A DNA stretch of 64,000 bases, taken from positions 1 through 64,000 of the forward strand of contig JBDRJK010000021.1 of assembly GCA_043814985.1 (NCBI GenBank), read 5' to 3'. The notes beneath the pieces were generated by a model. It had not been told where the DNA came from and did no database searches. It saw only the letters and a program-made list of their open reading frames with translations. The translations under genes were made by a program, and so were the position numbers. This DNA comes from Candidatus Aenigmatarchaeota archaeon. Its GTDB lineage: Archaea; Aenigmatarchaeota; Aenigmatarchaeia; Aenigmatarchaeales; Aenigmatarchaeaceae. Positions 46,510-60,208 of this stretch are shown piece after piece. Numbering within the stretch: position 1 is the first letter of the stretch; each line of letters starts with the position of its first letter.

Positions 46510-47394
46510 ATGATACAGACTTTTTTCGCAGCCCTGTTTTTGATATTGGGGCTCTCATTCACCATACATTCGTTTTTCTACGAGAAGAAGAACCTTATTT
46601 TCATAATTGGCTTGATGGTATTCTCAATCATATCACTTTTCTACTGGTACATCTCAATACTTGTTCTGATTCTATTTACTTTATACAAGAAGTACGACTT
46701 CGGCGAGTTTGCCACGCTCAACATGTTCACTGCAGTTCTCATGGCCTGGTTTTTTTTGAATTTGTTCTTGCTGAACCTTAACATCTCCTTTTACCTGATA
46801 GCAATGGTCTCCTTGGTTGCAATGTCTTTGTTGGCCATATTCGGCATATTCGAGCAGAAGCTGAAAAAGTACATCCTGATATCAAACATAATACAGATAC
46901 TTTTTGTTGTTCTGGATTTGTCTGTCACCAAGATGCTGGGGAAGATGGGTGTCCTGAGTACCATCCAGATTTTCAACTATACATTCGCAGGCCTGACCTT
47001 CTTCCTTACACTGTGGATTTTCGGAAGGAAAAAAGTTTTGATAAATGAGCTTGAAGGTTCATATTTCGCGAGCAGGGCGAACGACATATTTGCAACAATA
47101 GCTTGCTTATCATTAGCAGGACTGCCAGCTTTCAACATGTTCGTTTCAGAATGGTTTCTGTTTGTGGGAAGCTTTGCCTTAACACCGATAATAACAGTAA
47201 TGGGCATCTTCCTTGCTCTGTTGCTTTTCATAATGTACTACAAGATTGTTTATGTTCTGCTTGTTGGCGAGGGCAGGCAGAAGACTATCCCGCAACCAAT
47301 AACAATAGTTAACGGAATCTTAGCTGTTACTTGCGTTATTTTGGGGCTGTTGCCTTGGTTACAATTAGAGATACTAACGAGGGTGGTAATATGA
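46510..47394 (+). CDS. proton-translocating membrane subunit (truncated MrpD/NuoN-like) of the hydrogenase
   Basis: LKKYILISNI, LSLAGLPAFNMFVSEW; only 294 aa. Confidence 0.8.
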   Translation: MIQTFFAALFLILGLSFTIHSFFYEKKNLIFIIGLMVFSIISLFYWYISILVLILFTLYKKYDFGEFATLNMFTAVLMAWFFLNLFLLNLNISFYLIAMVSLVAMSLLAIFGIFEQKLKKYILISNIIQILFVVLDLSVTKMLGKMGVLSTIQIFNYTFAGLTFFLTLWIFGRKKVLINELEGSYFASRANDIFATIACLSLAGLPAFNMFVSEWFLFVGSFALTPIITVMGIFLALLLFIMYYKIVYVLLVGEGRQKTIPQPITIVNGILAVTCVILGLLPWLQLEILTRVVI

Positions 47395-47561
47395 AGAGGA
47401 AAAAAACAAAGCACATACATGACATCTACATGGGAGGAGAAAGGGACCCGGAGAAGCTGATCATTCCAGAGGACTTGGGAAAGTTCTTTGACAAGAAAAT
47501 GGTTTTCCTGGTGTTCTTCGTATTATTGATAATGCTTTTGATTGCAGGTGTTGGTCTATGA
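47391..47561 (+). CDS. small hydrogenase-associated membrane subunit
   Basis: ATGA overlaps on both sides; IYMGGE motif and one TM helix. Confidence 0.65.
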   Translation: MKRKKTKHIHDIYMGGERDPEKLIIPEDLGKFFDKKMVFLVFFVLLIMLLIAGVGL

Positions 47562-47986
47562 AAAAAATAATAAAGTCCCCCTGGATTACTAATTTCGATG
47601 CAGGCGGGTGCAACGGATGCATACTGGAGATATTCGCTTTATTGACACCCAGATATGATATTGAAAGGTTCGGTTGTCTGTTGAAAGCAAGCGCAAGGCA
47701 TGCAGACATCCTGATAGTTAGCGGGATTGTCAATAGGCAGAACAAGGAGAGGTTGAAAACTATTTACGATCAGATGGCAAAGGACAAGAAGGTTGTTGTA
47801 ATAGGTTCCTGTGCAATAACTGGTGGACCTTTCAAGGATTGTTACAATTTCGCGGGTCCTGTTGACAAAGTGATACCAGTGGACATGTACATTCCTGGTT
47901 GCCCGCCAAGACCAGAAGCTATAATAGAAGGACTAGTAAAACTGTTAGGTAGTTTGAATGATAAAAGTAAGAAACAGAATAAATAA
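47558..47986 (+). CDS. group 4 [NiFe]-hydrogenase small subunit (EchC/NuoB-like)
   Basis: GGCNGCILE, RHAD, GSCA and PGCPPRPE motifs. Confidence 0.93.
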   Translation: MKKIIKSPWITNFDAGGCNGCILEIFALLTPRYDIERFGCLLKASARHADILIVSGIVNRQNKERLKTIYDQMAKDKKVVVIGSCAITGGPFKDCYNFAGPVDKVIPVDMYIPGCPPRPEAIIEGLVKLLGSLNDKSKKQNK

Positions 47987-48275
47987 GTATTCGAGGCTGA
48001 TAGCAATTGTCTGCAGAGACGAGAATGACTTTTACTTAGATTACTATTTCGATTACAATGGCAGGATATCTGTTTTGAAGTTCAAGGTTCCCAAGAAAAA
48101 GCCAGTGATAGAAAGCATAGTGGCAGACTATCCAGGCGCAGACTATTTCGAGAGGGAGATACACGACTTCTTTGGTGTCGAGTTCAGCGGCAACCCGAAT
48201 CTTCACCTTAAATTGTTCCTGCCGGACAATTGGAACAAGAAGCCGCCCATGTTGAAGGATGATAAGAATGCATGA
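47958..48275 (+). CDS. NuoC/EchD-like subunit
   Basis: FEREIHDFFGVEFSGNP. Confidence 0.88.
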   Translation: MIKVRNRINKYSRLIAIVCRDENDFYLDYYFDYNGRISVLKFKVPKKKPVIESIVADYPGADYFEREIHDFFGVEFSGNPNLHLKLFLPDNWNKKPPMLKDDKNA

Positions 48276-49437
48276 TATGAAGCACGACTACACAATACCC
48301 TTGGGTCCCCAGCACCCGACCCTGAAAGAGCCAATGTGCATAAGGGTCAGCTTGGACGGGAGTGTCATCAAAGATGTTAATGTGAGGATGGGCTATACTC
48401 ATAAGGGGATTGAAAAGGTTATGGAAGGAAAGAACCCTGATTCTGCCCTTTATGTTTCACAGAGAATATGCGGCATATGCTCTGCTGCCCATGAGAATGC
48501 CTACTGCAGGACTGTTGAAGCTATTTTGAATTATGATCCTGAACCAAAGGTCAAGTACCTGAGAGCATTGATGATGGAATTGGAAAGAATGCACAGCCAT
48601 TTGTTATGGTTGGGTGTCATTGCCCATGAGATAGGCTACGAGACTCTGTTCATGTACTTCTGGAGGGAGAGGGAAAAGATAATAGACATTTTCGAGAAGA
48701 TGACAGGTGGTAGGGTTCACCATAACTTCAACAAGATAAGGACAGTCAGGTTTGATTTCGAGCACGGCAACAAGGAGTTCATCTTGAAAAGGCTTAACAG
48801 CGTCAAGAAAAAGGTGGACGACTACTTGAGCGAAATCAATTCCGACAATGTCATAAGTTCGAGATTGAAAGACATCGGGATAATAACCAACAGCGATGCA
48901 AAGAGGTACTGCTTGACAGGTCCCAATGCAAGGGGAAGCGGAGTCTCTTGTGATGTGAGAAAGTACGACCCGCCCTACAAGATATACAAGAATTTCGATT
49001 TCAACGAGATTATTGAAGACAGGGGAGATTCCTTTGCCAGGACTTCCGTCAGAATAAAAGAGCTTCTGGAATCAATAAAAATAATAAAACAATGTTTGGA
49101 CATGATGCCTCAGAAGAGAATACCAAAGTTCTCGTTCACCAACATACCGCAGGGCGAGGGAATTGGGAGGGTCGAGGCTCCAAGAGGCGAGTTGTTCTAC
49201 TACATCAAATTCAAGGACAACAAGATTGACAGGGTGAAGATGAGAACACCCACCTTCGGCTATTTCAAGATAGCTGAAAAGATTCTGGTTGGAAGAAGAA
49301 TCGGGGACGTGCCAGTCATAATCGGTTCACTTGACCCATGCTTCAGTTGCATGGAAAGGGTGATGGTTGTCAAGGACGGAAAGTCTGAGATGCTTAATGA
49401 GATCAACTTCAGGAGGAAGTATCTATGTACGAAATAA
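48268..49437 (+). CDS. group 4 [NiFe]-hydrogenase large subunit
   Basis: GPQHP, L1 RICGICSAAH, EAPRGE, and L2 DPCFSCMER followed by a C-terminal extension. Confidence 0.95.
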   Translation: MHDMKHDYTIPLGPQHPTLKEPMCIRVSLDGSVIKDVNVRMGYTHKGIEKVMEGKNPDSALYVSQRICGICSAAHENAYCRTVEAILNYDPEPKVKYLRALMMELERMHSHLLWLGVIAHEIGYETLFMYFWREREKIIDIFEKMTGGRVHHNFNKIRTVRFDFEHGNKEFILKRLNSVKKKVDDYLSEINSDNVISSRLKDIGIITNSDAKRYCLTGPNARGSGVSCDVRKYDPPYKIYKNFDFNEIIEDRGDSFARTSVRIKELLESIKIIKQCLDMMPQKRIPKFSFTNIPQGEGIGRVEAPRGELFYYIKFKDNKIDRVKMRTPTFGYFKIAEKILVGRRIGDVPVIIGSLDPCFSCMERVMVVKDGKSEMLNEINFRRKYLCTK

Positions 49438-50279
49438 TTTTTCTTGTGCTGGTCCCTTTCCTTGCGTTACTATATGAGGGATTCTTCAGAAAACTAAATG
49501 CAAGATTCCAGAACAGGATAGGGCCGCCAATACTGCAGCCCTTCTATGACATAATGAAACTTTGGGAGAAAAAGCCGCTGAAGAGCCAGAACGATCCCTT
49601 CTACAAGTATTCACCATTATTATATTTCATTTCAGTTTATGCATTATTCCTGTTCATTCCATTCTCCATAATAAGTTTCCAGTATGATTTTGTCTTGCTG
49701 CTCTATCTCACAATACTGGCAAGCGCCTTCTATGTTCTAGCTGGTTTGTCCTCTGACAATCCCTTCGGTATTATTGGTTCAATGAGAGAAATGATACTGA
49801 TGATAACCTATGAGATCACCCTTGTCATAACAGTCTTCAACTTCATCATGTTTTCTGGAGTTCTCTCTTTTGCTGATTTCAATTCTAACCTGTTGATACT
49901 ATCCCTTCCGCTATCCGCGATAGGATTGGCAATTGTATCTTTAGTTGAGGTCCACATAACGCCCTTTGACACAACAGAGGCCAAGACAGAAATAATGGGA
50001 GGCAGCACCACAGAGTATAGCGGAAGGAACTTGGCTCTGATGAAGATGTCAATGGTAATGAAGAGGCTGTTCTTCATTTTCCTTTTGCCTTTCCTTTTGT
50101 TCGGGAGAGATCTTATGATTCTTATACCAGCTAGTTTCGTCTTCCTGTTCATCTATGCCCTGTCACAGGCAACAACTTCCAGATACAGGGTTGATCAGGC
50201 TTTCAAGGTATACTTCTACATCATGGTACTTGTCCTGATAGATTTCATTCTGATAATGAGGGGGATAGTATGGGCATAA
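49425..50279 (+). CDS. NuoH/EchB-like membrane subunit
   Basis: RKLNARFQNRIGPP.LQPFYD.MKL; PFD..EA..E...G...EYSG. Confidence 0.93.
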   Translation: MYEIIFLVLVPFLALLYEGFFRKLNARFQNRIGPPILQPFYDIMKLWEKKPLKSQNDPFYKYSPLLYFISVYALFLFIPFSIISFQYDFVLLLYLTILASAFYVLAGLSSDNPFGIIGSMREMILMITYEITLVITVFNFIMFSGVLSFADFNSNLLILSLPLSAIGLAIVSLVEVHITPFDTTEAKTEIMGGSTTEYSGRNLALMKMSMVMKRLFFIFLLPFLLFGRDLMILIPASFVFLFIYALSQATTSRYRVDQAFKVYFYIMVLVLIDFILIMRGIVWA

Positions 50280-50605
50280 CAACCGAGGCAATAAAGAATC
50301 TATTCAAGAAGCCCTTCACAAGAAGATATCCCAAGGAAAAATTGAAACCCTACAAGAGATTCCGCGGAAGAATCAAGTACTATCCCAAGAGGTGCATAGG
50401 TTGCAGGTTGTGCGAAAAGTACTGCCCTGTTGGTGCTGTCAAATTCCATAAGAAGGGAAAGATAGACTTTGATTTGGGAATATGCGTGACATGCGGTATG
50501 TGTCAGGATGTCTGCCCGACGCAACCTAAGTCAATAGAAATGACCAATGAGTTTGAATTTTCTAACAAGGACAAGAAAAAACTGAAAAATGTTGTAAATG
50601 AATAG
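50270..50605 (+). CDS. NuoI/EchF-like 2[4Fe-4S] subunit
   Basis: CIGCRLCEKYCP and CVTCGMCQDVCP. Confidence 0.92.
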   Translation: MGITTEAIKNLFKKPFTRRYPKEKLKPYKRFRGRIKYYPKRCIGCRLCEKYCPVGAVKFHKKGKIDFDLGICVTCGMCQDVCPTQPKSIEMTNEFEFSNKDKKKLKNVVNE

Positions 50606-51467
50606 GGAAAATCTTGGAGTATTGCTTGCTGTACTAACTGCCCTAGTCAGCGGTTTCTCCATAGTCGCCAACAAGTTCTTCCTAGTTTCATTAGATCCAA
50701 CTCTTTTCACAGCACTTAGAACATTTTTTGTGGGCATGGGGTTCTTCCTGATTTCATTTTATAAGAACAAGTTTAGCTTAAAGGATTTCAACAAGGTTTC
50801 TTGGAAGATGCTCTTGGCAATAGGAGTTGTTGCTGGGTTTGCTTTCCTAGCTTTCTTCAATGGATTAAAGATTACAACTGCTGGAAGGGCTGCCTTTCTT
50901 CACAAGTTATTACCACTGTTCGTTACAGTGCTAGCATTCTTCTTCCTAAAGGAGAAAATAACAAGAAAACAGGTCTATGCAATGCTTGTTATGATTCTGG
51001 GTACATACCTAATATCCTACAGTGCTATAACGTTTGATGTTGCCTTCGGGGATTTGTTGATAATTGTTGCCACGATTCTGTTTGCCGTGGAGAACATAAT
51101 GTCCAAGTACGCCATGACAAACAAGGAGTCGAATTTTGTTGTGTCATTTTGTAGAATGTTTTTTGCATCCCTTGTATTACTGTCAATTGTGTTGCTTGCA
51201 GGAAATTACGACCAGTTGCTTTTGTTGAATTATGAGCAGATATTGTATATCGGGACTTCCATTTCATTACTGTTCCTCTACGTGCTCTTCTGGTACTATT
51301 CGATAAGCCTGATAAAAGTATCAAAGGCGTCAACCCTTCTTTTGCTGTCGCCGTTCATTTCCCTGTTCATGTCATTCATGTTGTTGGGAGAAGCTTTTTT
51401 GCCGTTGCAGATTCTCGGTTCTGTCCTAATTCTTGTTGGGGCTTTCATTGTTTCAAGAGCTGGTTGA
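50598..51467 (+). CDS. DMT/EamA family transporter
   Basis: About 10 TM helices in two EamA repeats; FLKEKI and LLGE. Confidence 0.88.
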   Translation: MNRENLGVLLAVLTALVSGFSIVANKFFLVSLDPTLFTALRTFFVGMGFFLISFYKNKFSLKDFNKVSWKMLLAIGVVAGFAFLAFFNGLKITTAGRAAFLHKLLPLFVTVLAFFFLKEKITRKQVYAMLVMILGTYLISYSAITFDVAFGDLLIIVATILFAVENIMSKYAMTNKESNFVVSFCRMFFASLVLLSIVLLAGNYDQLLLLNYEQILYIGTSISLLFLYVLFWYYSISLIKVSKASTLLLLSPFISLFMSFMLLGEAFLPLQILGSVLILVGAFIVSRAG

Positions 51468-51855
51468 CATTTTCGACTATTTTCCCCATCTTGCTTTTCA
51501 GCTCTTCACTCATTTCAATTCCGAAGTCAATGCTCTTTGTCTGAATCCCTATTATCTTTATTTTGGAATTGGGCAGAAACTTTTGAAGCAGGTCAAACGT
51601 TATGTTGTGGGTAGATATCACGACATTCTTTATGTCATTCAGTTCGAATGTCCTGACCTCGCCGACTTCCCCGTCAAACTGCAGAGCGTCAATAATCACT
51701 AATTCCTCGCAGATTTTCAGCTGGTCTATGAAGTTCTCAGGAGTGGTCTCTCCCTTTATTTTTTTGATGCCTTCAACATCCAGCTTATCTAGAACAATGT
51801 TTCCTATGTTGTCGTCACACTTGATGGGATTGCCGATGCTCATGACAGTTTTCAT
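51445..51855 (-). CDS. hydrogenase maturation protease (HycI-like)
   Basis: IGNPIKCDDNIG, TTPEN, IIDA, STH and IGIQ motifs. Confidence 0.9.
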   Translation of the reverse strand: MKTVMSIGNPIKCDDNIGNIVLDKLDVEGIKKIKGETTPENFIDQLKICEELVIIDALQFDGEVGEVRTFELNDIKNVVISTHNITFDLLQKFLPNSKIKIIGIQTKSIDFGIEMSEELKSKMGKIVENVNQLLKQ

Positions 51856-51869
51856 AAAATTTATTAGAT

Positions 51870-52415
51870 GTGGTTATACTTAATTATTATATGCTTAAGG
51901 AAGATAAGATAAGATTTTTGAAAATGGCCATTTCATGCCTGAGAAAGGGAGATGATAAAAGACCTATATTCAGTCCTGATGTTCCTACAGATGAGGATGT
52001 TGAAATCATTAAGAAATCCTTGGAAACAGGGAATATTGAAGAGAATATGCTGAAGAGGTTTTTCCCGATAGCGTACAAGGGAGTTAGCGAGTATGGTTTC
52101 TTTGAATATTTTTTCTCAATACATAACATGAACATAGGCATGCTGGAAAAATACACTAAAGATAAATTGGTTGATTGGTGCACTGCCTTTCCGGGTAAGA
52201 TAGTTGATAGAAAAGAATCCAAATGGGTTGTTGAAAGATATGATGGTAAAAGAATAATCTCAGACTCGGAGGCGTATCCGGGGATAACAATTGAGAAGGA
52301 ATTAAAAATCGGGGACTTTGTCATACTTCACAGGGACAAGATTCACATGGTCTTGAATAAAGATGAATTTGAAACTGCCTTGAAATTCTATAATAAATTC
52401 AGAAATGAAAAGTAA
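51870..52415 (+). CDS. hypothetical protein, possibly hydrogenase-associated
   Basis: VDWC...GK and a HypC-like GDFVILH OB-fold motif; located among maturation genes. Confidence 0.55.
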   Translation: MVILNYYMLKEDKIRFLKMAISCLRKGDDKRPIFSPDVPTDEDVEIIKKSLETGNIEENMLKRFFPIAYKGVSEYGFFEYFFSIHNMNIGMLEKYTKDKLVDWCTAFPGKIVDRKESKWVVERYDGKRIISDSEAYPGITIEKELKIGDFVILHRDKIHMVLNKDEFETALKFYNKFRNEK

Positions 52416-54732: not shown

Positions 54733-56076
54733 ATGATTGAGAATATTGGTGACTGGCAGAGAACACATTATTCCAAGCAGGTCAAGCCGGAAATGGGCAA
54801 TGAAGAAGTCATTGTGATGGGTTGGGTCAGAGAATTAAGGGACTTGGGTAAATTGAAGTTCATCAAGCTGGCTGACAGGGAAGGCTTCATACAGGTTACT
54901 GCAAAGGAAGGGGACGTCAAGCCGGATATAATCAATAAAATAGAAGGCTTGGGAAGGGAGGATGTCATTGCTGTCAAGGGCATTGTAAAGGCAAGCAAGC
55001 AGGCTCCCAATGGAATCGAAATAATGCCAGTTGATGTGAGGATTCTTAACACTTCTGATTCACCATTGCCTCTAGAGCTGGAGACCAAGAAAACACCTGC
55101 TCACATTGATACGAGGATGAACTGGAGATTTTTAGATTTGAGGAAACATGAGAACAATCTCATATTCAAGATACAGACTGCAATGGAAATGGCCATGAGG
55201 GAATTCTGGATCAAGAATGGTTTCATTGAAATTCATTCTCCTAAATTAATGGGTTCTCAGAGCGAGACAGGAGCAGAGCTGTTCACTGTTGTCTATTTTG
55301 ACAGGGAAGCGTATCTGGCACAATCGCCCCAGTTCTACAAGCAGCTGGCAATGATTGCAGGTTTTGATAGGGTTTTTGAGATAGCTCCTGTTTTCAGGGC
55401 CAATCCATCTCATACAGTTAGGCATGACACCGAGTACACTTCTATTGATATGGAGATGTCTTGGATAAGTTCACATGAGGATGTGATGGCATTTGAGGAA
55501 AAGTGGATTACCTATGTGATTGAACAAGTGAAGAAACAGTATGGAGACAAGATAAAGGAAACATTTGGTTTTGAATTGGTTGTTCCCAAAATACCTTTCC
55601 CAAGAATGACTCTCAAGGAAGCCAAGGATAAAATCAAGAAAACTGGTAAAAAGGTTTCATACAAAGAGGACCTTTCACCTGAGGAGGAAAGGCTTTTGGG
55701 AGAATTGGTAAAGGAAGAGTCCGGTCATGAGTTTGTGTTTGTGACTGAGTTCCCGTGGAAGATTAAGCCTTTCTATCACATGAGAGACGAGAAGAATCCT
55801 GGAGTGACAAAAGGTTTCGACTTACTGTGGAAAGGATTGGAAGTGACCACAGGCTCTCAGAGAGAGCACAGGTATGACGTGTTGGTTGAGCAGGCAAAGG
55901 AGAAGAAGCTTAAGTTGGACAGCATAAAGTCTTATCTGGATTTTTTCAGGTATGGGGCGCCTCCACATGGCGGTTTAGGTTTTGGTTTGACAAGGGCTCT
56001 TATGACAATGTTTGAAATGAAAAATGTGAGAGAGGTCACTTTCGCTTTCAGAGACATGGACAGGCTTTATCCTTAG
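54733..56076 (+). CDS. aspS: archaeal aspartyl-tRNA synthetase
   Basis: RTHYS, GWV..RDLG, YLAQSPQFYKQ, FRANPS...RH, GSQREH and PPHGG.G.G motifs. Confidence 0.95.
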   Translation: MIENIGDWQRTHYSKQVKPEMGNEEVIVMGWVRELRDLGKLKFIKLADREGFIQVTAKEGDVKPDIINKIEGLGREDVIAVKGIVKASKQAPNGIEIMPVDVRILNTSDSPLPLELETKKTPAHIDTRMNWRFLDLRKHENNLIFKIQTAMEMAMREFWIKNGFIEIHSPKLMGSQSETGAELFTVVYFDREAYLAQSPQFYKQLAMIAGFDRVFEIAPVFRANPSHTVRHDTEYTSIDMEMSWISSHEDVMAFEEKWITYVIEQVKKQYGDKIKETFGFELVVPKIPFPRMTLKEAKDKIKKTGKKVSYKEDLSPEEERLLGELVKEESGHEFVFVTEFPWKIKPFYHMRDEKNPGVTKGFDLLWKGLEVTTGSQREHRYDVLVEQAKEKKLKLDSIKSYLDFFRYGAPPHGGLGFGLTRALMTMFEMKNVREVTFAFRDMDRLYP

Positions 56077-56085
56077 GTGATTAAG

Positions 56086-56526
56086 ATGAGAGAGTGTATA
56101 TTTTGCGAAATTGTAAAGGGAAAAAGAGAAAAAAATCACAAGATTCTTGAAAATGATAAGCATCTGGCTTTTCTAGATATTTATCCTGTTACTAAGGGCC
56201 AAACCTTGGTTATACCTAAGAAGCACTACAAAGGTTTAGGTGTTTTTAGTCTTACAAGAAATGAATATGAGGATTTGTTTCTCTTCGCTAAAAAGACCGC
56301 AAGAAAAATCAAGAAAAAACTCAAACCCAAGTTCATAATTATGGTCGTAGAGGGCATGATGATTGATCATCTTCACATAAAGCTTTATCCTATATACAAA
56401 ATACAAAAGAAGTCTGACAACAGGCTTCTAAAGCCTTATCAGCCATATAAAGGATATTTGATAACCCAGATAGGGCCGAAAGCCAGTGAAAAAAAACTTA
56501 AAAGAATAGCCCGCCTTCTTTCCTGA
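56086..56526 (+). CDS. HIT family protein
   Basis: CIFC, AFLDIYP...GQTLVIPKKH and an HLHIK variant triad. Confidence 0.9.
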   Translation: MRECIFCEIVKGKREKNHKILENDKHLAFLDIYPVTKGQTLVIPKKHYKGLGVFSLTRNEYEDLFLFAKKTARKIKKKLKPKFIIMVVEGMMIDHLHIKLYPIYKIQKKSDNRLLKPYQPYKGYLITQIGPKASEKKLKRIARLLS

Positions 56527-56592
56527 AGAATTTCTATTATATATTTAAAGTTTACTACTATATTGTAATACATAAATTAGGAGTGTGTTATT

Positions 56593-57939
56593 ATGGTAGA
56601 AATTAATTATAATGAAAAACAGATTGAATTGCTTCTAGGAAAGAGAAAACAAAATGCAGAAGTGACAGAAAGAGATTTTGGTAGCGATGTTGTTGTCGCA
56701 GGATACATAAAGAATATAGCAGATCTTGGTAAAAATATGAAGTTTCTAACTTTGGCAGATGCCTCAGGGGAAATACAACTGACGTTAAAGAAAGGAGTTT
56801 ATGTTGGAGTTGAGGATGCTAAAATGCTCACCCCTCATACCTTTATTGTTGCGAAAGGTGAGGCATGTAAAGGAAGGGCTAAAGACGGTCGTGAAGTTCT
56901 TGTAAAAGATATTAGTCTTTTGAGCGATGTTGTAACAGAGAAGATTCCAACAGAGATGAGGACCAGTCTTGACAAGAGATTGGATTACAGGTGGGTGGAT
57001 TTGAGGAATGAAAAGCACAGGTTCCCTCTTACAATGGTTTCCGAGTTCACAAGGTATTCAAGGGACTTTTTCAATGAAAACGGCTTCACTGAAATTTTCA
57101 CGCCAAAGATAGTGGGTACTCCAACTGAGGGTGGAGCAGAGGCGTTCCCTGTTCTTTATTTTGACAGGGAAGCGTATCTGGCACAATCGCCCCAGTTCTA
57201 CAAGCAAATGGCTATATGCTCTGGTTTTGACAGGGTTTTTGAGATAGCTCCTGTTTTCAGGGCCAATCCATCCCACACTACAAGGCATGATACCGAGTAC
57301 ACCTCTTTGGATTTCGAGATAGGGTACATTACATCGCATCAGGATGTAATGAAAGCCGAAGAGGGTATGCTGAGCCATGTTTTCAAAAACATTAAAGAGA
57401 AGTATGGGGATAAAATCAGGAAGAAATTCAAACAGGAGATAGACGTTCCTAAAAATATACCTCAAATAAGGATGGAGGAAGCTTACGAGATTGTAACAAA
57501 GGAAGATGTAGACGAAAAAGGCAGCTTGAGACCATCAGGGGAGAAGGCTGTTTCTGAACATGTTAAGGAAGCATACGGAAGTGATTTCATCTTTATAACA
57601 GATTTCCCTTATGATGCTAGACCTTTTTATCATATGAAGGGTGAAGCTATGAGGAACGGTAAAGAGACTACGAAGAGCTTTGACCTGATTTACAGAGGTG
57701 TAGAGATTACAACAGGCGCTCAGAGGGAACACAGGCACGGAAAATTAACAGCCCAAGTGGTTGAGAAAGGCTTAAGTACTAATAATCTAAAACAATATCT
57801 AGATTTTTTCAAGTACGGAGCACCTCCCCACGGTGGTATCGGGTTGAGCCCTAGTAGAGTTGTCACGAACATGCTTGATCTCGGGAATGTGAGGGAAGCA
57901 ACAATGGCTCCGAGGGATCCGAAAAGACTGTTTCCATAG
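56593..57939 (+). CDS. aspS: second aspartyl-tRNA synthetase
   Basis: RLDYRWVDLR, YLAQSPQFYKQ, GAQREH and PPHGG motifs; divergent anticodon-binding domain. Confidence 0.9.
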   Translation: MVEINYNEKQIELLLGKRKQNAEVTERDFGSDVVVAGYIKNIADLGKNMKFLTLADASGEIQLTLKKGVYVGVEDAKMLTPHTFIVAKGEACKGRAKDGREVLVKDISLLSDVVTEKIPTEMRTSLDKRLDYRWVDLRNEKHRFPLTMVSEFTRYSRDFFNENGFTEIFTPKIVGTPTEGGAEAFPVLYFDREAYLAQSPQFYKQMAICSGFDRVFEIAPVFRANPSHTTRHDTEYTSLDFEIGYITSHQDVMKAEEGMLSHVFKNIKEKYGDKIRKKFKQEIDVPKNIPQIRMEEAYEIVTKEDVDEKGSLRPSGEKAVSEHVKEAYGSDFIFITDFPYDARPFYHMKGEAMRNGKETTKSFDLIYRGVEITTGAQREHRHGKLTAQVVEKGLSTNNLKQYLDFFKYGAPPHGGIGLSPSRVVTNMLDLGNVREATMAPRDPKRLFP

Positions 57940-57948
57940 GTTGTTTAT

Positions 57949-59256
57949 TTGCTGAATAGAGACTTAATAAAAAATGTTAAAAAACAAGATAAAGAAAAAG
58001 ACGTTAACGTTTTTGGATGGCTTAAAAACAAAAAGGATTTTGGCAAAATAATCATTTTGAGAATAGTTGATTCTTCTGGAGAGATTCGTGCTGTGGCAAA
58101 GACCAAAATATTGAAAGAGAACTCTTTTCTTGATATCAAGAAGCTCAAGAAGGAATCCTGTATAAATGTTATGGGAAATTACGATTCCAAAAAGAAAGAA
58201 ATCCAGATAAAAGAAATAAAAATTATTGCAGCTGCTACTAAGTCTATATCGCCCTCCGCAAGGGATGATTTTGATATCTATAATCAGAAATACACAAGTC
58301 TTGTCTGCGATAACAGGCACATCTATTTGAGAAACGAGAAAATTGCCACAATACTCAAGATTAGGAGCATGTTCATGGAGGAAATGCGCGATTACTTCCA
58401 AAAGAACAATTTCATCAATTTTAGCGCACCGATTTTGACCAACATAACACTTTATGGCGACAAGACAGCCTTTGATATTGATTTCTGTGGTAAGAAACTC
58501 TACCTCACACAATGCACAGCATTCTATCTGGAGTCTGCTATACCGGCTTTCGAGAAGGTTTATTTCATGTCGCCTTCTTTCAGGAATGAAAAGTCTAAGA
58601 GCAGGAGGCATCTTAGCGAATACTGGCACTGCAAAGGAGAAATAGCTTTTTGTGATTTAGAAGGAATGATGAAGTTTGTAGAGAATATGACATACACTGT
58701 CTACAAAAATCTAGTAAAAAACGCAGGAGAGGAGATGAGGAAAATAACCAAAATAGATTTTAACAAATTCAAGCCACCTTACAAGTCAATTACCTATGAA
58801 AAGGCCGTTGAAGTTCTACAGAATAATGGTTTCAAAATAAAGTTTGGTCAAAGCATTGGGAGTGACGAAGAAAGATTCTTAGGTGAGAGGATGAAAAAAA
58901 TGTTTTGGATCAAGTTCCTACCAAGAAAGGTGGAGGCATTCCCCTACAGAATCAACCCTTCTGATGAAAGAACAACACTGACGGCAGACCTCTTGTGCAA
59001 TGAGTCTGGCGAGATATTGGGAACCGCTGAAAAGATATATCAAAAGGAAGAATTGGAAAGAAGGATGAGGGAGGATTTCGTTGCACATCCAAAAGAAATT
59101 TACAAATGGTACATAGAGCTTAGAGAAATGGGCTTGCCGCCGCATAGTGGTTTTGGTATGGGTGTGGAAAGAGTCTTGAGAAGTTTTCTTAATCTTAAAC
59201 ATGTAAGGGATGTTATACCTTATCCAAGACTTTATACAAGATTACCTTATCCTTGA
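57949..59256 (+). CDS. divergent asparaginyl-tRNA synthetase-like protein
   Basis: FRNEKSKSRRHLSEYW and PHSGFGMGVER are AsnRS-type; YLTQCTAFYLE is aberrant; TTG start. Confidence 0.8.
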   Translation: MLNRDLIKNVKKQDKEKDVNVFGWLKNKKDFGKIIILRIVDSSGEIRAVAKTKILKENSFLDIKKLKKESCINVMGNYDSKKKEIQIKEIKIIAAATKSISPSARDDFDIYNQKYTSLVCDNRHIYLRNEKIATILKIRSMFMEEMRDYFQKNNFINFSAPILTNITLYGDKTAFDIDFCGKKLYLTQCTAFYLESAIPAFEKVYFMSPSFRNEKSKSRRHLSEYWHCKGEIAFCDLEGMMKFVENMTYTVYKNLVKNAGEEMRKITKIDFNKFKPPYKSITYEKAVEVLQNNGFKIKFGQSIGSDEERFLGERMKKMFWIKFLPRKVEAFPYRINPSDERTTLTADLLCNESGEILGTAEKIYQKEELERRMREDFVAHPKEIYKWYIELREMGLPPHSGFGMGVERVLRSFLNLKHVRDVIPYPRLYTRLPYP

Positions 59257-60149
59257 TTTAATAATATTTCTATATTTTCAGAACCAATTTTTTTAAGAGT
59301 ATCGTCATTGAAATCTAAGTTCATAAAACTCTTTACAACATTCATATATTTTTCTTCAGTAATGTAGGGTAAATCTGTTCCGAATAATATCTTTTCAGCA
59401 CCCAATGTTTTGATTAGAAAATCATATACGTCTTTACAATTCTTTTTGGTTTTAGCTGCAAACCTATCCAAAAGACTGGTTTCAACAAAAACATTCTTTG
59501 TCTTTCTAGCATTTTCCAATACACCAGTGTCAAGCCTAGCACAGTGGGCAATTATGAAGCTTACAGAGGGATAGCATCTGGCAAGTTCTATTATATTAGA
59601 AGGTAGTGAGTTTTCATCCTCACCTGAATGCGAGATAAAAACAAGGCCGTTTTCCTTGACAATATCCATTATTTCTGTTTTAGCTAGTTTTTTTGGGGAG
59701 AAATTAGTTACAAAGGGATGTATTTTAACACCTATTATACCTTTCTCAATATAATCATTCAGACATTTCACATTTTTAGGGTATCTCGGGTCTATTATTA
59801 TGAAAGGTAATAAATCCTTGTTTCTTTTCCCAATGCCAATTATCTTTTCATTTTCTTTGTGATAGGGGTTTTCCTTGATTTTCCACCTTCCCTTACAGAG
59901 GGGGCATTCCAGAATGTAATGGTCTTCATGGACGCTTAAACATGTGGGGGAAAGACCGTAAGATTTGCAGTTTTTATTTTCACATGTTAGCTCTCTTACG
60001 CTTGGGCAGGGGAAAATTACAGATTTTTCAACCCCATTTTTTCTCATTAAATCTAATAGCCTACTTTCTGATAACGATATCTTTCTATCAGTCTTTCTGT
60101 TATAATAGTAATCGTTTCCTATATGCACGTGGCAGTCTGTTATTTTCAT
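59247..60149 (-). CDS. amidohydrolase-family metalloenzyme with Cys-rich insertion
   Basis: DCHVH, GVKIHP, SHSG, IAH and LFGTD.P motifs; C..C...CPLC insert. Confidence 0.85.
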   Translation of the reverse strand: MKITDCHVHIGNDYYYNRKTDRKISLSESRLLDLMRKNGVEKSVIFPCPSVRELTCENKNCKSYGLSPTCLSVHEDHYILECPLCKGRWKIKENPYHKENEKIIGIGKRNKDLLPFIIIDPRYPKNVKCLNDYIEKGIIGVKIHPFVTNFSPKKLAKTEIMDIVKENGLVFISHSGEDENSLPSNIIELARCYPSVSFIIAHCARLDTGVLENARKTKNVFVETSLLDRFAAKTKKNCKDVYDFLIKTLGAEKILFGTDLPYITEEKYMNVVKSFMNLDFNDDTLKKIGSENIEILLNQG

Positions 60150-60208
60150 AATTATAATTATATATGGAAACCATAAATTTTATAAGTTTCTAATATTCTA
60201 ATGATGTT

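Follow-up and report, generated by a model that had tools for sequence, protein, structure and literature searches.

Gene content and insertion at the aspS1 locus

The window analysed here is a 64,000-nucleotide stretch of DNA from contig C21 of a Candidatus Aenigmatarchaeota archaeon genome (G000; 808 kb, 91% complete), and it carries a cluster of aminoacyl-tRNA synthetase (aaRS) genes and hydrolases. On the forward strand lie aspS1 (54733..56076), the resident housekeeping archaeal aspartyl-tRNA synthetase (AspRS) with Pro in its L1 loop; a HIT hydrolase (56086..56526, with an alternative GTG start possible at 56077); aspS2 (56593..57939), an acquired archaeal-genre AspRS with Lys in that loop; and a full-length paralogue of asparaginyl-tRNA synthetase (AsnRS), here called PAR (57949..59256). 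An amidohydrolase of the Amidohydrolase_2 family occupies the reverse strand (59247..60149). The first-pass annotation, made from the letters alone, had placed all five open reading frames (ORFs) at these positions; all are intact, and the motifs QAPNG, RAKDG and YLTQCTAFYLE read exactly as it quoted them. Its description of the later genes as AT-rich was not borne out. GC contents in the order aspS1, HIT, aspS2, PAR and amidohydrolase are 0.429, 0.345, 0.416, 0.368 and 0.334 (percentiles 71, 10, 54, 16 and 8 among 463 genome ORFs with a mean of 0.405 ± 0.042), aspS2 being average, and since none of these genes is an outlier we rejected base composition as proof of transfer.

In the sister genome G002 the gene order is rnhB, aspS1, HIT, ferredoxin and geranylgeranyl reductase with nothing between, and aspS1 is 94% identical to its syntenic counterpart there. 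Similarity to G002 DNA stops at 56465 and resumes at 60173, points that lie only ~100 nt apart in G002, and therefore aspS2, PAR and the amidohydrolase form a ~3.6-kb insertion (outer limits 56466..60172) that is absent from G002. Both aspS1 and HIT are native to the lineage. An acquired module had been proposed, against the alternative of three vertically inherited synthetases and a HIT gene unlinked in relatives; acquisition holds for the three inserted genes, while aspS1 is native and HIT already follows it in G002. Though syntenic, HIT is only 55% identical between the two genomes, the least conserved of eight genes compared (70–96% for the others). No terminal repeats were seen at the ends of the insertion, PAR had no match in viral contigs, and plasmids and phages as possible carriers gave only matches of 27–37% identity, named asnS where annotated.

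Both AspRS proteins exceed the cut-off of the archaeal AspRS model TIGR00458 (353 bits; 546 for aspS1 and 453 for aspS2). They are 45% identical and fall in different clades of a FastTree phylogeny, in which aspS2 clusters with other Lys-loop AspRS, including the partner at metagenome locus L131, and not with aspS1, and on these grounds we rejected a recent duplication of aspS1. In T. kodakarensis AspRS the residue aligned with the Lys of aspS2 is the Lys of the AKLG loop, and in two structures of non-discriminating type it is the Pro (register from 3nel/1b8a, 1n9w and 1wyd). Presumably Pro in the L1 loop marks a non-discriminating and Lys a discriminating AspRS, a rule on which a literature search gave no passage; by it aspS1 would be of the non-discriminating and aspS2 of the discriminating type. 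The Pro loop is kept by all 22 housekeeping AspRS of the relatives of G000.

The PAR family and its cassette

PAR joins an OB anticodon domain (PF01336) to a class IIb catalytic domain (PF00152), and its structural model (pLDDT 94.5) matches P. horikoshii AsnRS (1x54) with a TM-score of 0.90. It resembles that canonical enzyme in domain layout, fold and the ATP residues of motifs 2 and 3, and it scores below both AsnRS cut-offs (319 versus 414 bits for PRK03932; 299 versus 342.6 bits for TIGR00457). A homologue search gave 78 proteins at 308–590 bits, with canonical AsnRS reaching at most 285 bits among the 120 listed. In a tree of 104 sequences, which is approximate, without bootstrap and open to long-branch effects, 52 PAR sequences formed one clade (support 0.78, or 0.87 without two long basal branches), with 35 canonical AsnRS as its sister group and AS-AR placed elsewhere. 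Unlike AS-AR and AsnA, which consist of the catalytic domain only, PAR has the OB domain and a separate branch. Judged by sequence, PAR is a sharply bounded, distinct family and not a diverged housekeeping AsnRS, and these full-length AsnRS paralogues, whose predicted pocket is charge-reversed and contains Cys, are apparently undescribed as a family. Our literature searches found no paper on the paralogue or its cassette, though such neighbours might appear in Fig. S4 of PMC7157772 or in the data of the S51 tree. The family is not described in the available portions of PMC5388404, PMC9976931 and PMC8323819, and an AsnRS-derived paralogue is missing from the review table of PMC9437257, a paper in which "AsnRS" occurs 0 times. 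PADLOC gave no match for PAR.

Pocket positions were counted from an alignment with P. horikoshii AsnRS, and the PAR alignment (n = 76) held the window copy and 75 of the 78 homologues, with one fragment and two long forms excluded. Glu168, Ser188, Gln190, Glu228, Tyr333, Gly361, Ser362 and Arg364 of the P. horikoshii enzyme have changed in concert: Val167-Glu168 is replaced by Leu (76/76) and Tyr (75/76), Ser188 by Cys, Glu228 by Lys and Tyr333 by Pro (each 76/76), Gln190 by Ala, Gly or Thr (76/76), Gly361-Ser362 by Val, Ile, Thr or Ala followed by Ala, and Arg364 by Lys (72/76). The window copy has Leu168-Tyr169, Cys189, Ala191, Lys229, Pro332, Ala360 and Lys362. We take Ser188, Gln190, the motif-2 Glu (as ligand of the amide or alpha-amino group) and the Arg before motif 3 to be working parts of the AsnRS pocket. 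The ATP residues Arg212, Glu224, Glu355 and Arg408 are each kept in 76 of 76 sequences, so the alignment shows a predicted adenylate site retained alongside a conserved, rebuilt pocket. In human AsnRS, the flipping-loop Glu contacts the Asn moiety (PMC10831071, in the part available). An acidic pair at 170-171 (63/76 and 64/76) might hold an amino group in PAR. The anticodon residues Arg, Phe, Gln and Glu are kept in 71, 72, 69 and 70 of the 76, and the window copy has Lys, Ile, Arg and Glu there, three of the usual family residues being lost. The AsnRS RAPGG anticodon loop, which we assume reads U36, is not conserved in the family. A protein that scores under the AsnRS cut-offs and no longer has the residues of the Asn pocket is a poor fit for the direct Asn pathway that the first-pass annotation had considered.

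PAR occurs in archaea, bacteria and fungi, where it is annotated simply as asparagine-tRNA ligase. The fungal members, added by a profile search, are labelled Penicillium hordei, P. thymicola, Apiospora aurea and Fusarium circinatum (P0396, P0397, P0274 and P0324), and the Penicillium hordei protein has an N-terminal extension that by eye resembles a degenerate P-loop kinase, with no Pfam match. The distribution is patchy: among 301 genomes of the phylum of G000 a PAR-level score was found in G000 only (10 of the 29 next-best matches were checked and were canonical), PAR was present in 4 of 400 genomes drawn from the phylum of G309, and it was found in 0 of 398 drawn from the class of G310.

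That PAR is the conserved core of a recurring cassette was absent from the first-pass annotation. We collected 84 PAR loci including the window, or 73 after merging at 90% identity (L185 was left out of counts), and as controls used 77 canonical AsnRS loci among the 80 listed in a genome-contig search, the other three being PAR loci. An AspRS lies within 1.5 kb of PAR in 61 of 73 loci, ORFs truncated at a contig end included, and in 0 of 77 controls; of the 12 loci lacking a near AspRS, 8 have less than 1 kb downstream and L052 has one 4.9 kb away. The clustering seen in the window is not due to chance, since the pairing repeats in dozens of unrelated loci and in no control. Pairwise identities of PAR and of its partner are correlated (rho 0.64, 51 pairs; none of 2000 permutations reached this value; kin are not independent), and the pair of PAR and Lys-loop AspRS travels as a unit. 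Partners in bacterial loci fall in a single clade (0.97) and have a Val-Lys-Leu-Gly-Gly loop, their Lys standing one residue earlier than in the archaeal register, and a second archaeal-genre AspRS near the cassette in L150, L189, L206 and L210 has a Gln-Ala-Pro/Gln-type loop. A regular-expression tally of the L1 loop (n = 58) gave 51 K/R, 4 P and 3 other; it mis-called four AP-x-VKLGG loops as Pro, so the alignment was used. In L052 and L139 a 3′ remnant of a bacterial aspS follows the partner AspRS, which indicates displacement in place.

Several loci carry additional genes. In L131 (7560-9593) and L132 (12821-14824), whose PAR proteins are the two closest relatives of the window copy (58% identity), a glutamyl-tRNA-reductase-like domain with its Cys motif kept is fused to an AspRS-like catalytic domain lacking the anticodon domain, and this fusion, possibly an aspartate 1-reductase, adjoins an Fe-alcohol dehydrogenase and PAR. 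Eight two-domain homologues of the fusion were found; it is present in 2 of 73 PAR loci, and a search of G000 did not find it. In the Lachnospiraceae locus L052 (7157-16776), behind hisS and ahead of the aspS remnant, PAR is followed by a GARS-like ATP-grasp protein, a 473-aa protein that by eye is HAD- and kinase-like and had no match in Pfam, class II aaRS-like, nucleoside monophosphate (NMP)-kinase-like and HD proteins and AspRS, an arrangement resembling a gene cluster for a nucleotide natural product. Between PAR and AspRS in L139 (10267-11064), L186 (8138-8980) and L053 (10290-11459) lie proteins that have membrane segments predicted at their N termini and no Pfam or PADLOC match, and upstream in L139 is a GNAT acetyltransferase for which an MccE-like role is possible. 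A ~550-aa histidine kinase is often found upstream of PAR (L150, L161, L165, L169, L171, L181 and L190), and in 10 loci an 83-121-aa protein with no identification lies directly upstream (e.g., L051:8718-9041).

Hydrolases beside PAR and the proposed function of the cassette

The third position of the cassette is exchangeable and holds hydrolases whose sequences show signatures of microcin immunity. A hydrolase lies within 4 kb of PAR in 29 of the 39 loci with at least 3 kb downstream and in 0 of 65 controls, a contrast that is overstated, to an extent not known, as controls and PAR loci are for the most part from different phyla and the controls were probed with the hydrolases of the module. 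The slot was filled by HIT (11), S51 (11), S66 (5) and two amidohydrolase clades (8 and 3, the 3 being of the window type). HIT enzymes of the MccH clade carry an ExxxxxHxHxK motif, with the third His changed to Lys, and cleave aspartamide-adenylate (PMC7157772, as far as available). This motif is present in 18 of 18 HITs near PAR, including that of the window, and the other HIT of G000 is canonical; the window HIT has by eye lost the N-terminal His and has Gln there, where MccH has Phe. The S66 neighbour scored 175-196 bits to MccF-type structures versus 62-78 bits to LD-carboxypeptidases, and the S51 neighbours have by eye a Ser and a His followed by Asp, as in the MccG-clade triad (PMC9239234, in part). 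The closest relatives of the window amidohydrolase adjoin PAR in four other loci, and no solved structural relative of it was found. MccE, MccF, MccG and MccH are known self-immunity routes against isoAsn-nucleotides, which inhibit AspRS (the same portion of PMC9239234). Since three unrelated folds with one known shared substrate fill the slot beside an extra AspRS, we consider it fairly probable that the cassette concerns an Asp-adenylate mimic, in protection or in production. The earlier suggestion of microcin C-type resistance or aaRS-based biosynthesis gains from the MccH motif of the window HIT and from the MccF-like and S51 peptidases of related loci.

We think that the cassette is best explained, with a probability of about 0.45, as a mobile unit protecting aspartyl-tRNA synthesis from Asp-adenylate mimics, in which PAR would be a new detoxifying enzyme. 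It would move horizontally, having here inserted behind the resident aspS1-HIT pair, and would counter processed microcin C-type mimics (isoAsn-NMP) taken up from neighbours or hosts. The extra AspRS may be a spare or less sensitive target that replaces the native aspS in some bacteria. Cleavage of the mimic at its P-N or amide bond would fall to the slot hydrolases, among which the two amidohydrolase clades could be a further, undescribed class with this role. The weakest step concerns PAR, which might bind an Asp-type mimic with two pocket lysines on the free carboxylate and inactivate it, serving as a trap or as a Cys-dependent amidase; in the likeliest chemistry the invariant Cys189 would attack the acyl carbon (Cys189/Lys229/Glu231) and Asp would be passed to water or to a bound tRNA. 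Protection without production fits the gene content, since a search for the MccB/ThiF family (PF00899) gave no match in G000, G309, G674 and G679, four of the five PAR genomes searched, and no exporter was seen in the window locus, nor an MFS exporter in the 90 of 190 candidate neighbours scanned. MccA and MccB were not seen with the cassette. The fifth genome, G702, has a plain 262-aa ThiF-family gene, a broken amidohydrolase and a MccH-motif HIT directly beside the cassette (L269:5108-7447). PADLOC returned only a weak ThsC-HIT match.

The cassette combines known kinds of component, namely an aaRS paralogue and microcin-type resistance genes. In the known cases the Mcc immunity enzymes MccH (HIT), MccF (S66), MccG (S51) and MccE (GNAT) are found in mcc clusters or as standalone genes (PMC7157772 and PMC9239234, in the parts available). 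Here, with the same AspRS target, such enzymes are interchangeable members of an operon with AspRS and PAR, two amidohydrolase clades share their slot, and mccA, mccB and an exporter are not seen. Like the antibiotic-insensitive second synthetases IleRS2 (mupirocin), SerRS2 (albomycin) and TrpRS1 (indolmycin; PMC9437257, in part), aspS2 is a distant, acquired second copy, 45% identical to aspS1. It differs from them in that its insensitivity is a prediction by analogy, in that its Asp pocket is canonical and partly overwritten by aspS1 DNA, and in that it comes with a second, rebuilt synthetase. PAR shares with AS-A/AS-AR, EpmA, SbzA, MshC and the amino acid:carrier protein ligases the re-use of a synthetase site for another substrate, SbzA being a full-length paralogue that moves an amino acid from tRNA to an aaRS inhibitor scaffold (the available part of PMC9437257).

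A number of observations weigh against a protective role, beginning with the fact that the activity of the cassette and the substrate of PAR are predicted from sequence throughout, and with the overstated control contrast. One of the two MccH-motif homologues tested from Parcubacteria was inactive (PMC7157772, in part), and the literature passages available name no AspRS that is resistant to microcin C. HIT flanks an ordinary aspS without PAR in G002 and in G023 (a 45%-identical HIT), and part of the hydrolase link is therefore to AspRS and not to PAR. Some PAR loci have no Lys-loop partner or detected hydrolase. PAR comes directly after gatB in L133 and L136 (gatA was seen in L133 only), where G001 and G003 hold a canonical asnS in the gatB-adjacent slot, and in L137 it lies beside AS-AR and AsnC. 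The anticodon residues kept by most of the family would be superfluous for a pure small-molecule hydrolase. Lastly, the closest relatives L131 and L132, as well as L052, hold biosynthetic-looking genes.

The last point belongs to the leading rival, a producer with self-immunity in which PAR would make an aspartyl-adenylate mimic without MccB and the AspRS and hydrolases would serve as the antidote; we hold this to be rather unlikely. The chemistry proposed for detoxification would here run in the forward direction: PAR would either take Asp from Asp-tRNA, a product of the partner AspRS, and attach it through Cys189 to the amine of a nucleotide, a reaction like that of SbzA with Ile-tRNA, or adenylate an Asp derivative. 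With such an antidote the cassette might act as a selfish element of poison and antidote, as a weapon or as a defence signal. The ATP site of PAR and, in most members, its tRNA-binding residues are intact, and the reductase fusion of L131 and L132 with its Fe-alcohol dehydrogenase is a plausible route to aspartol, whose adenylate is a known AspRS inhibitor (PMC3367201, in part). Also in favour are the ATP-grasp, aaRS-like, kinase-like and HD proteins between PAR and AspRS in L052, the displacement of native aspS, as a constant internal poison would favour, the patchy fungal PAR, and the discovery of MccF, MccG and MccH all as self-immunity genes (PMC7157772 and PMC9239234, as above). However, the fusion is confined to 2 of 73 loci and eight two-domain homologues and is not in G000, no exporter was seen in the neighbours scanned, and PAR has no PADLOC match. 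Additionally, a poison-making PAR would be hard to tolerate where it stands alone by ordinary translation genes, as in L050, L133, L136 and G674. A one-enzyme, MccB-independent synthase whose cassette, a poison-antidote element of two synthetases, inserts at aspS, makes the native gene useless and displaces it is a scenario we would not favour; were PAR such a synthase, it would open a new route to natural aaRS inhibitors, and the reductase-AspRS with Fe-alcohol dehydrogenase, the ATP-grasp cluster and the fungal copies would mark undiscovered AspRS inhibitors in symbiotic archaea, bacteria of Candidate Phyla Radiation (CPR) size and moulds.

An alternative way of charging tRNA(Asn) is unlikely. 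PAR and a discriminating AspRS would divide the job of a non-discriminating AspRS, PAR being kept because it is insensitive to an inhibitor and charging Asn via a different pocket, or Asp for amidation by GatCAB, much as H. pylori GluRS2 reportedly charges tRNA(Gln) for amidation. The full-length AsnRS fold (TM-score 0.90), the family-wide anticodon residues and an adjacent partner that lacks the Pro found in 22 of 22 housekeeping AspRS of relatives suit this idea, as do the position of PAR after gatB in L133 and L136 and beside AS-AR in L137 and the presence of GatB in 6 of the 8 other PAR genomes tested (G309, G624, G674, G679, G702 and G007). It is opposed by the pocket, where all 76 sequences have Lys in place of the acidic residue that binds the amide or alpha-amino group, and Cys and Ala, Gly or Thr in place of Ser188 and Gln190; by the unconserved RAPGG loop and the three anticodon residues lost from the window copy; and by the microcin-type hydrolases, for which it does not account. 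G310 and G311 hold canonical AsnRS beside PAR with no GatB match, their partner being the only intact AspRS found, and since canonical AsnRS coexists with PAR there and PAR occurs in filamentous fungi, PAR is not required for routine charging. G624, G679 and G702 retain a separate housekeeping AspRS.

The first-pass annotation had raised a switch from the indirect to the direct Asn pathway and pointed to gatCAB and asnS as the genes to look for. The class IIb synthetases found in the G000 assembly are aspS1, aspS2 and PAR only, and GatA and GatB gave no match in it; the gatAB region is missing from the assembly along with DNA ligase and most of the remaining gatAB-flanking genes of G001 and G003, and GluRS gave a weak match only. 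All three genus mates keep GatA and GatB, G002 having gatAB without an adjoining asnS. As the missing gatCAB is an assembly gap and PAR does not keep the Asn-pocket residues, the switch was rejected as unsupported, and on the simplest view aspS1 continues to function with a GatCAB that the assembly has missed.

Very unlikely, finally, is quality control or acyl transfer unrelated to toxins, with PAR acting on N-acylated Asp- or Asn-tRNA (peptidyl- or acetyl-tRNA) or a dicarboxylic acid and the hydrolases clearing side products of Asp/Asn activation: the two lysines, the space at Gln190, the loss of canonical alpha-amino ligands and the retained tRNA-binding domain suit such N-acyl-Asp or dicarboxylate substrates, but the acidic pair 170-171 may still bind an amino group, and the patchy distribution and microcin-specific hydrolase signatures favour conflict over housekeeping.

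If the protective reading, or the producer reading, is right, the cassette suggests that toxins mimicking aspartyl-adenylate are met, or used as weapons, by tiny host-dependent microbes, and it predicts that amidohydrolases include a new class able to detoxify microcins. All the proteins of the cassette are small soluble enzymes with clear assays.

Gene conversion in aspS2 and surroundings of the locus

A tract of aspS2 (57157..57272, forward strand), covering the amino-acid-binding loop and motif 2, closely matches one in aspS1 (55294..55409, forward strand) through exact common runs of 50 nt (55294-55343 and 57157-57206) and 41 nt (55369-55409 and 57232-57272). By comparison, the longest exact run between aspS1 and its 94%-identical orthologue is 35 nt, and between the members of five other co-located AspRS pairs and the G029 pair it is 21 nt. 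Identical residues use identical codons at 37 of 45 positions in the tract versus 59 of 148 outside (p = 5e-7). Since the nearest homologues of aspS2 differ at the patch residues while aspS2 matches aspS1, aspS1 was the donor in this recent gene conversion, a clean case in a synthetase pair of only 45% identity. Any special motif 2 property of aspS2 may have been erased by the patch, which together with the worn anticodon site of PAR hints that this copy of the cassette is undergoing domestication. An assembly artefact was rejected, as X3, from another study, covers 56964-57498 without a difference and the X1 contigs break at both copies. In run X2 one low-depth contig (3.5), which was not used, runs from the 5′ half of aspS2 through the 50-nt repeat into the 3′ half of aspS1 (57156/55294); this is probably a graph artefact, and an excised circle would give the same picture. 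The G029 pair (L032:5800-8982) consists of two tandem AspRS, both Pro-type, and a 162-aa protein between them that by eye resembles an asparaginase N-terminal domain.

ARAGORN called no tRNA-Asn in the G000 assembly, and it called a tRNA-Pyl (CTA) and two "Stop" (TTA) tRNAs (C1:15164-15250, C13:20278-20390 and C19:84738-84860) that are probably products of misplaced introns. G000 also has a gene of the geranylgeranyl reductase family and, next to each other, GatD and a GatE-type gene, and this content, like the labels of aspS2 homologues, suggests a DPANN-type archaeon. In L031 (3615-8051), gatD and a short 480-aa GatE-type gene are split by a 403-aa ORF that is homing-endonuclease-like by eye, and a similar 186-aa ORF lies beside tRNA-Met in G002 (L033:1952-2512); the window has no such ORF. 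Upstream of the synthetase cluster, window positions 46510-52415 hold an operon that by eye resembles one for a membrane-bound hydrogenase and includes genes for a maturation protease and a HypC-like protein, the latter a weak Pfam match.

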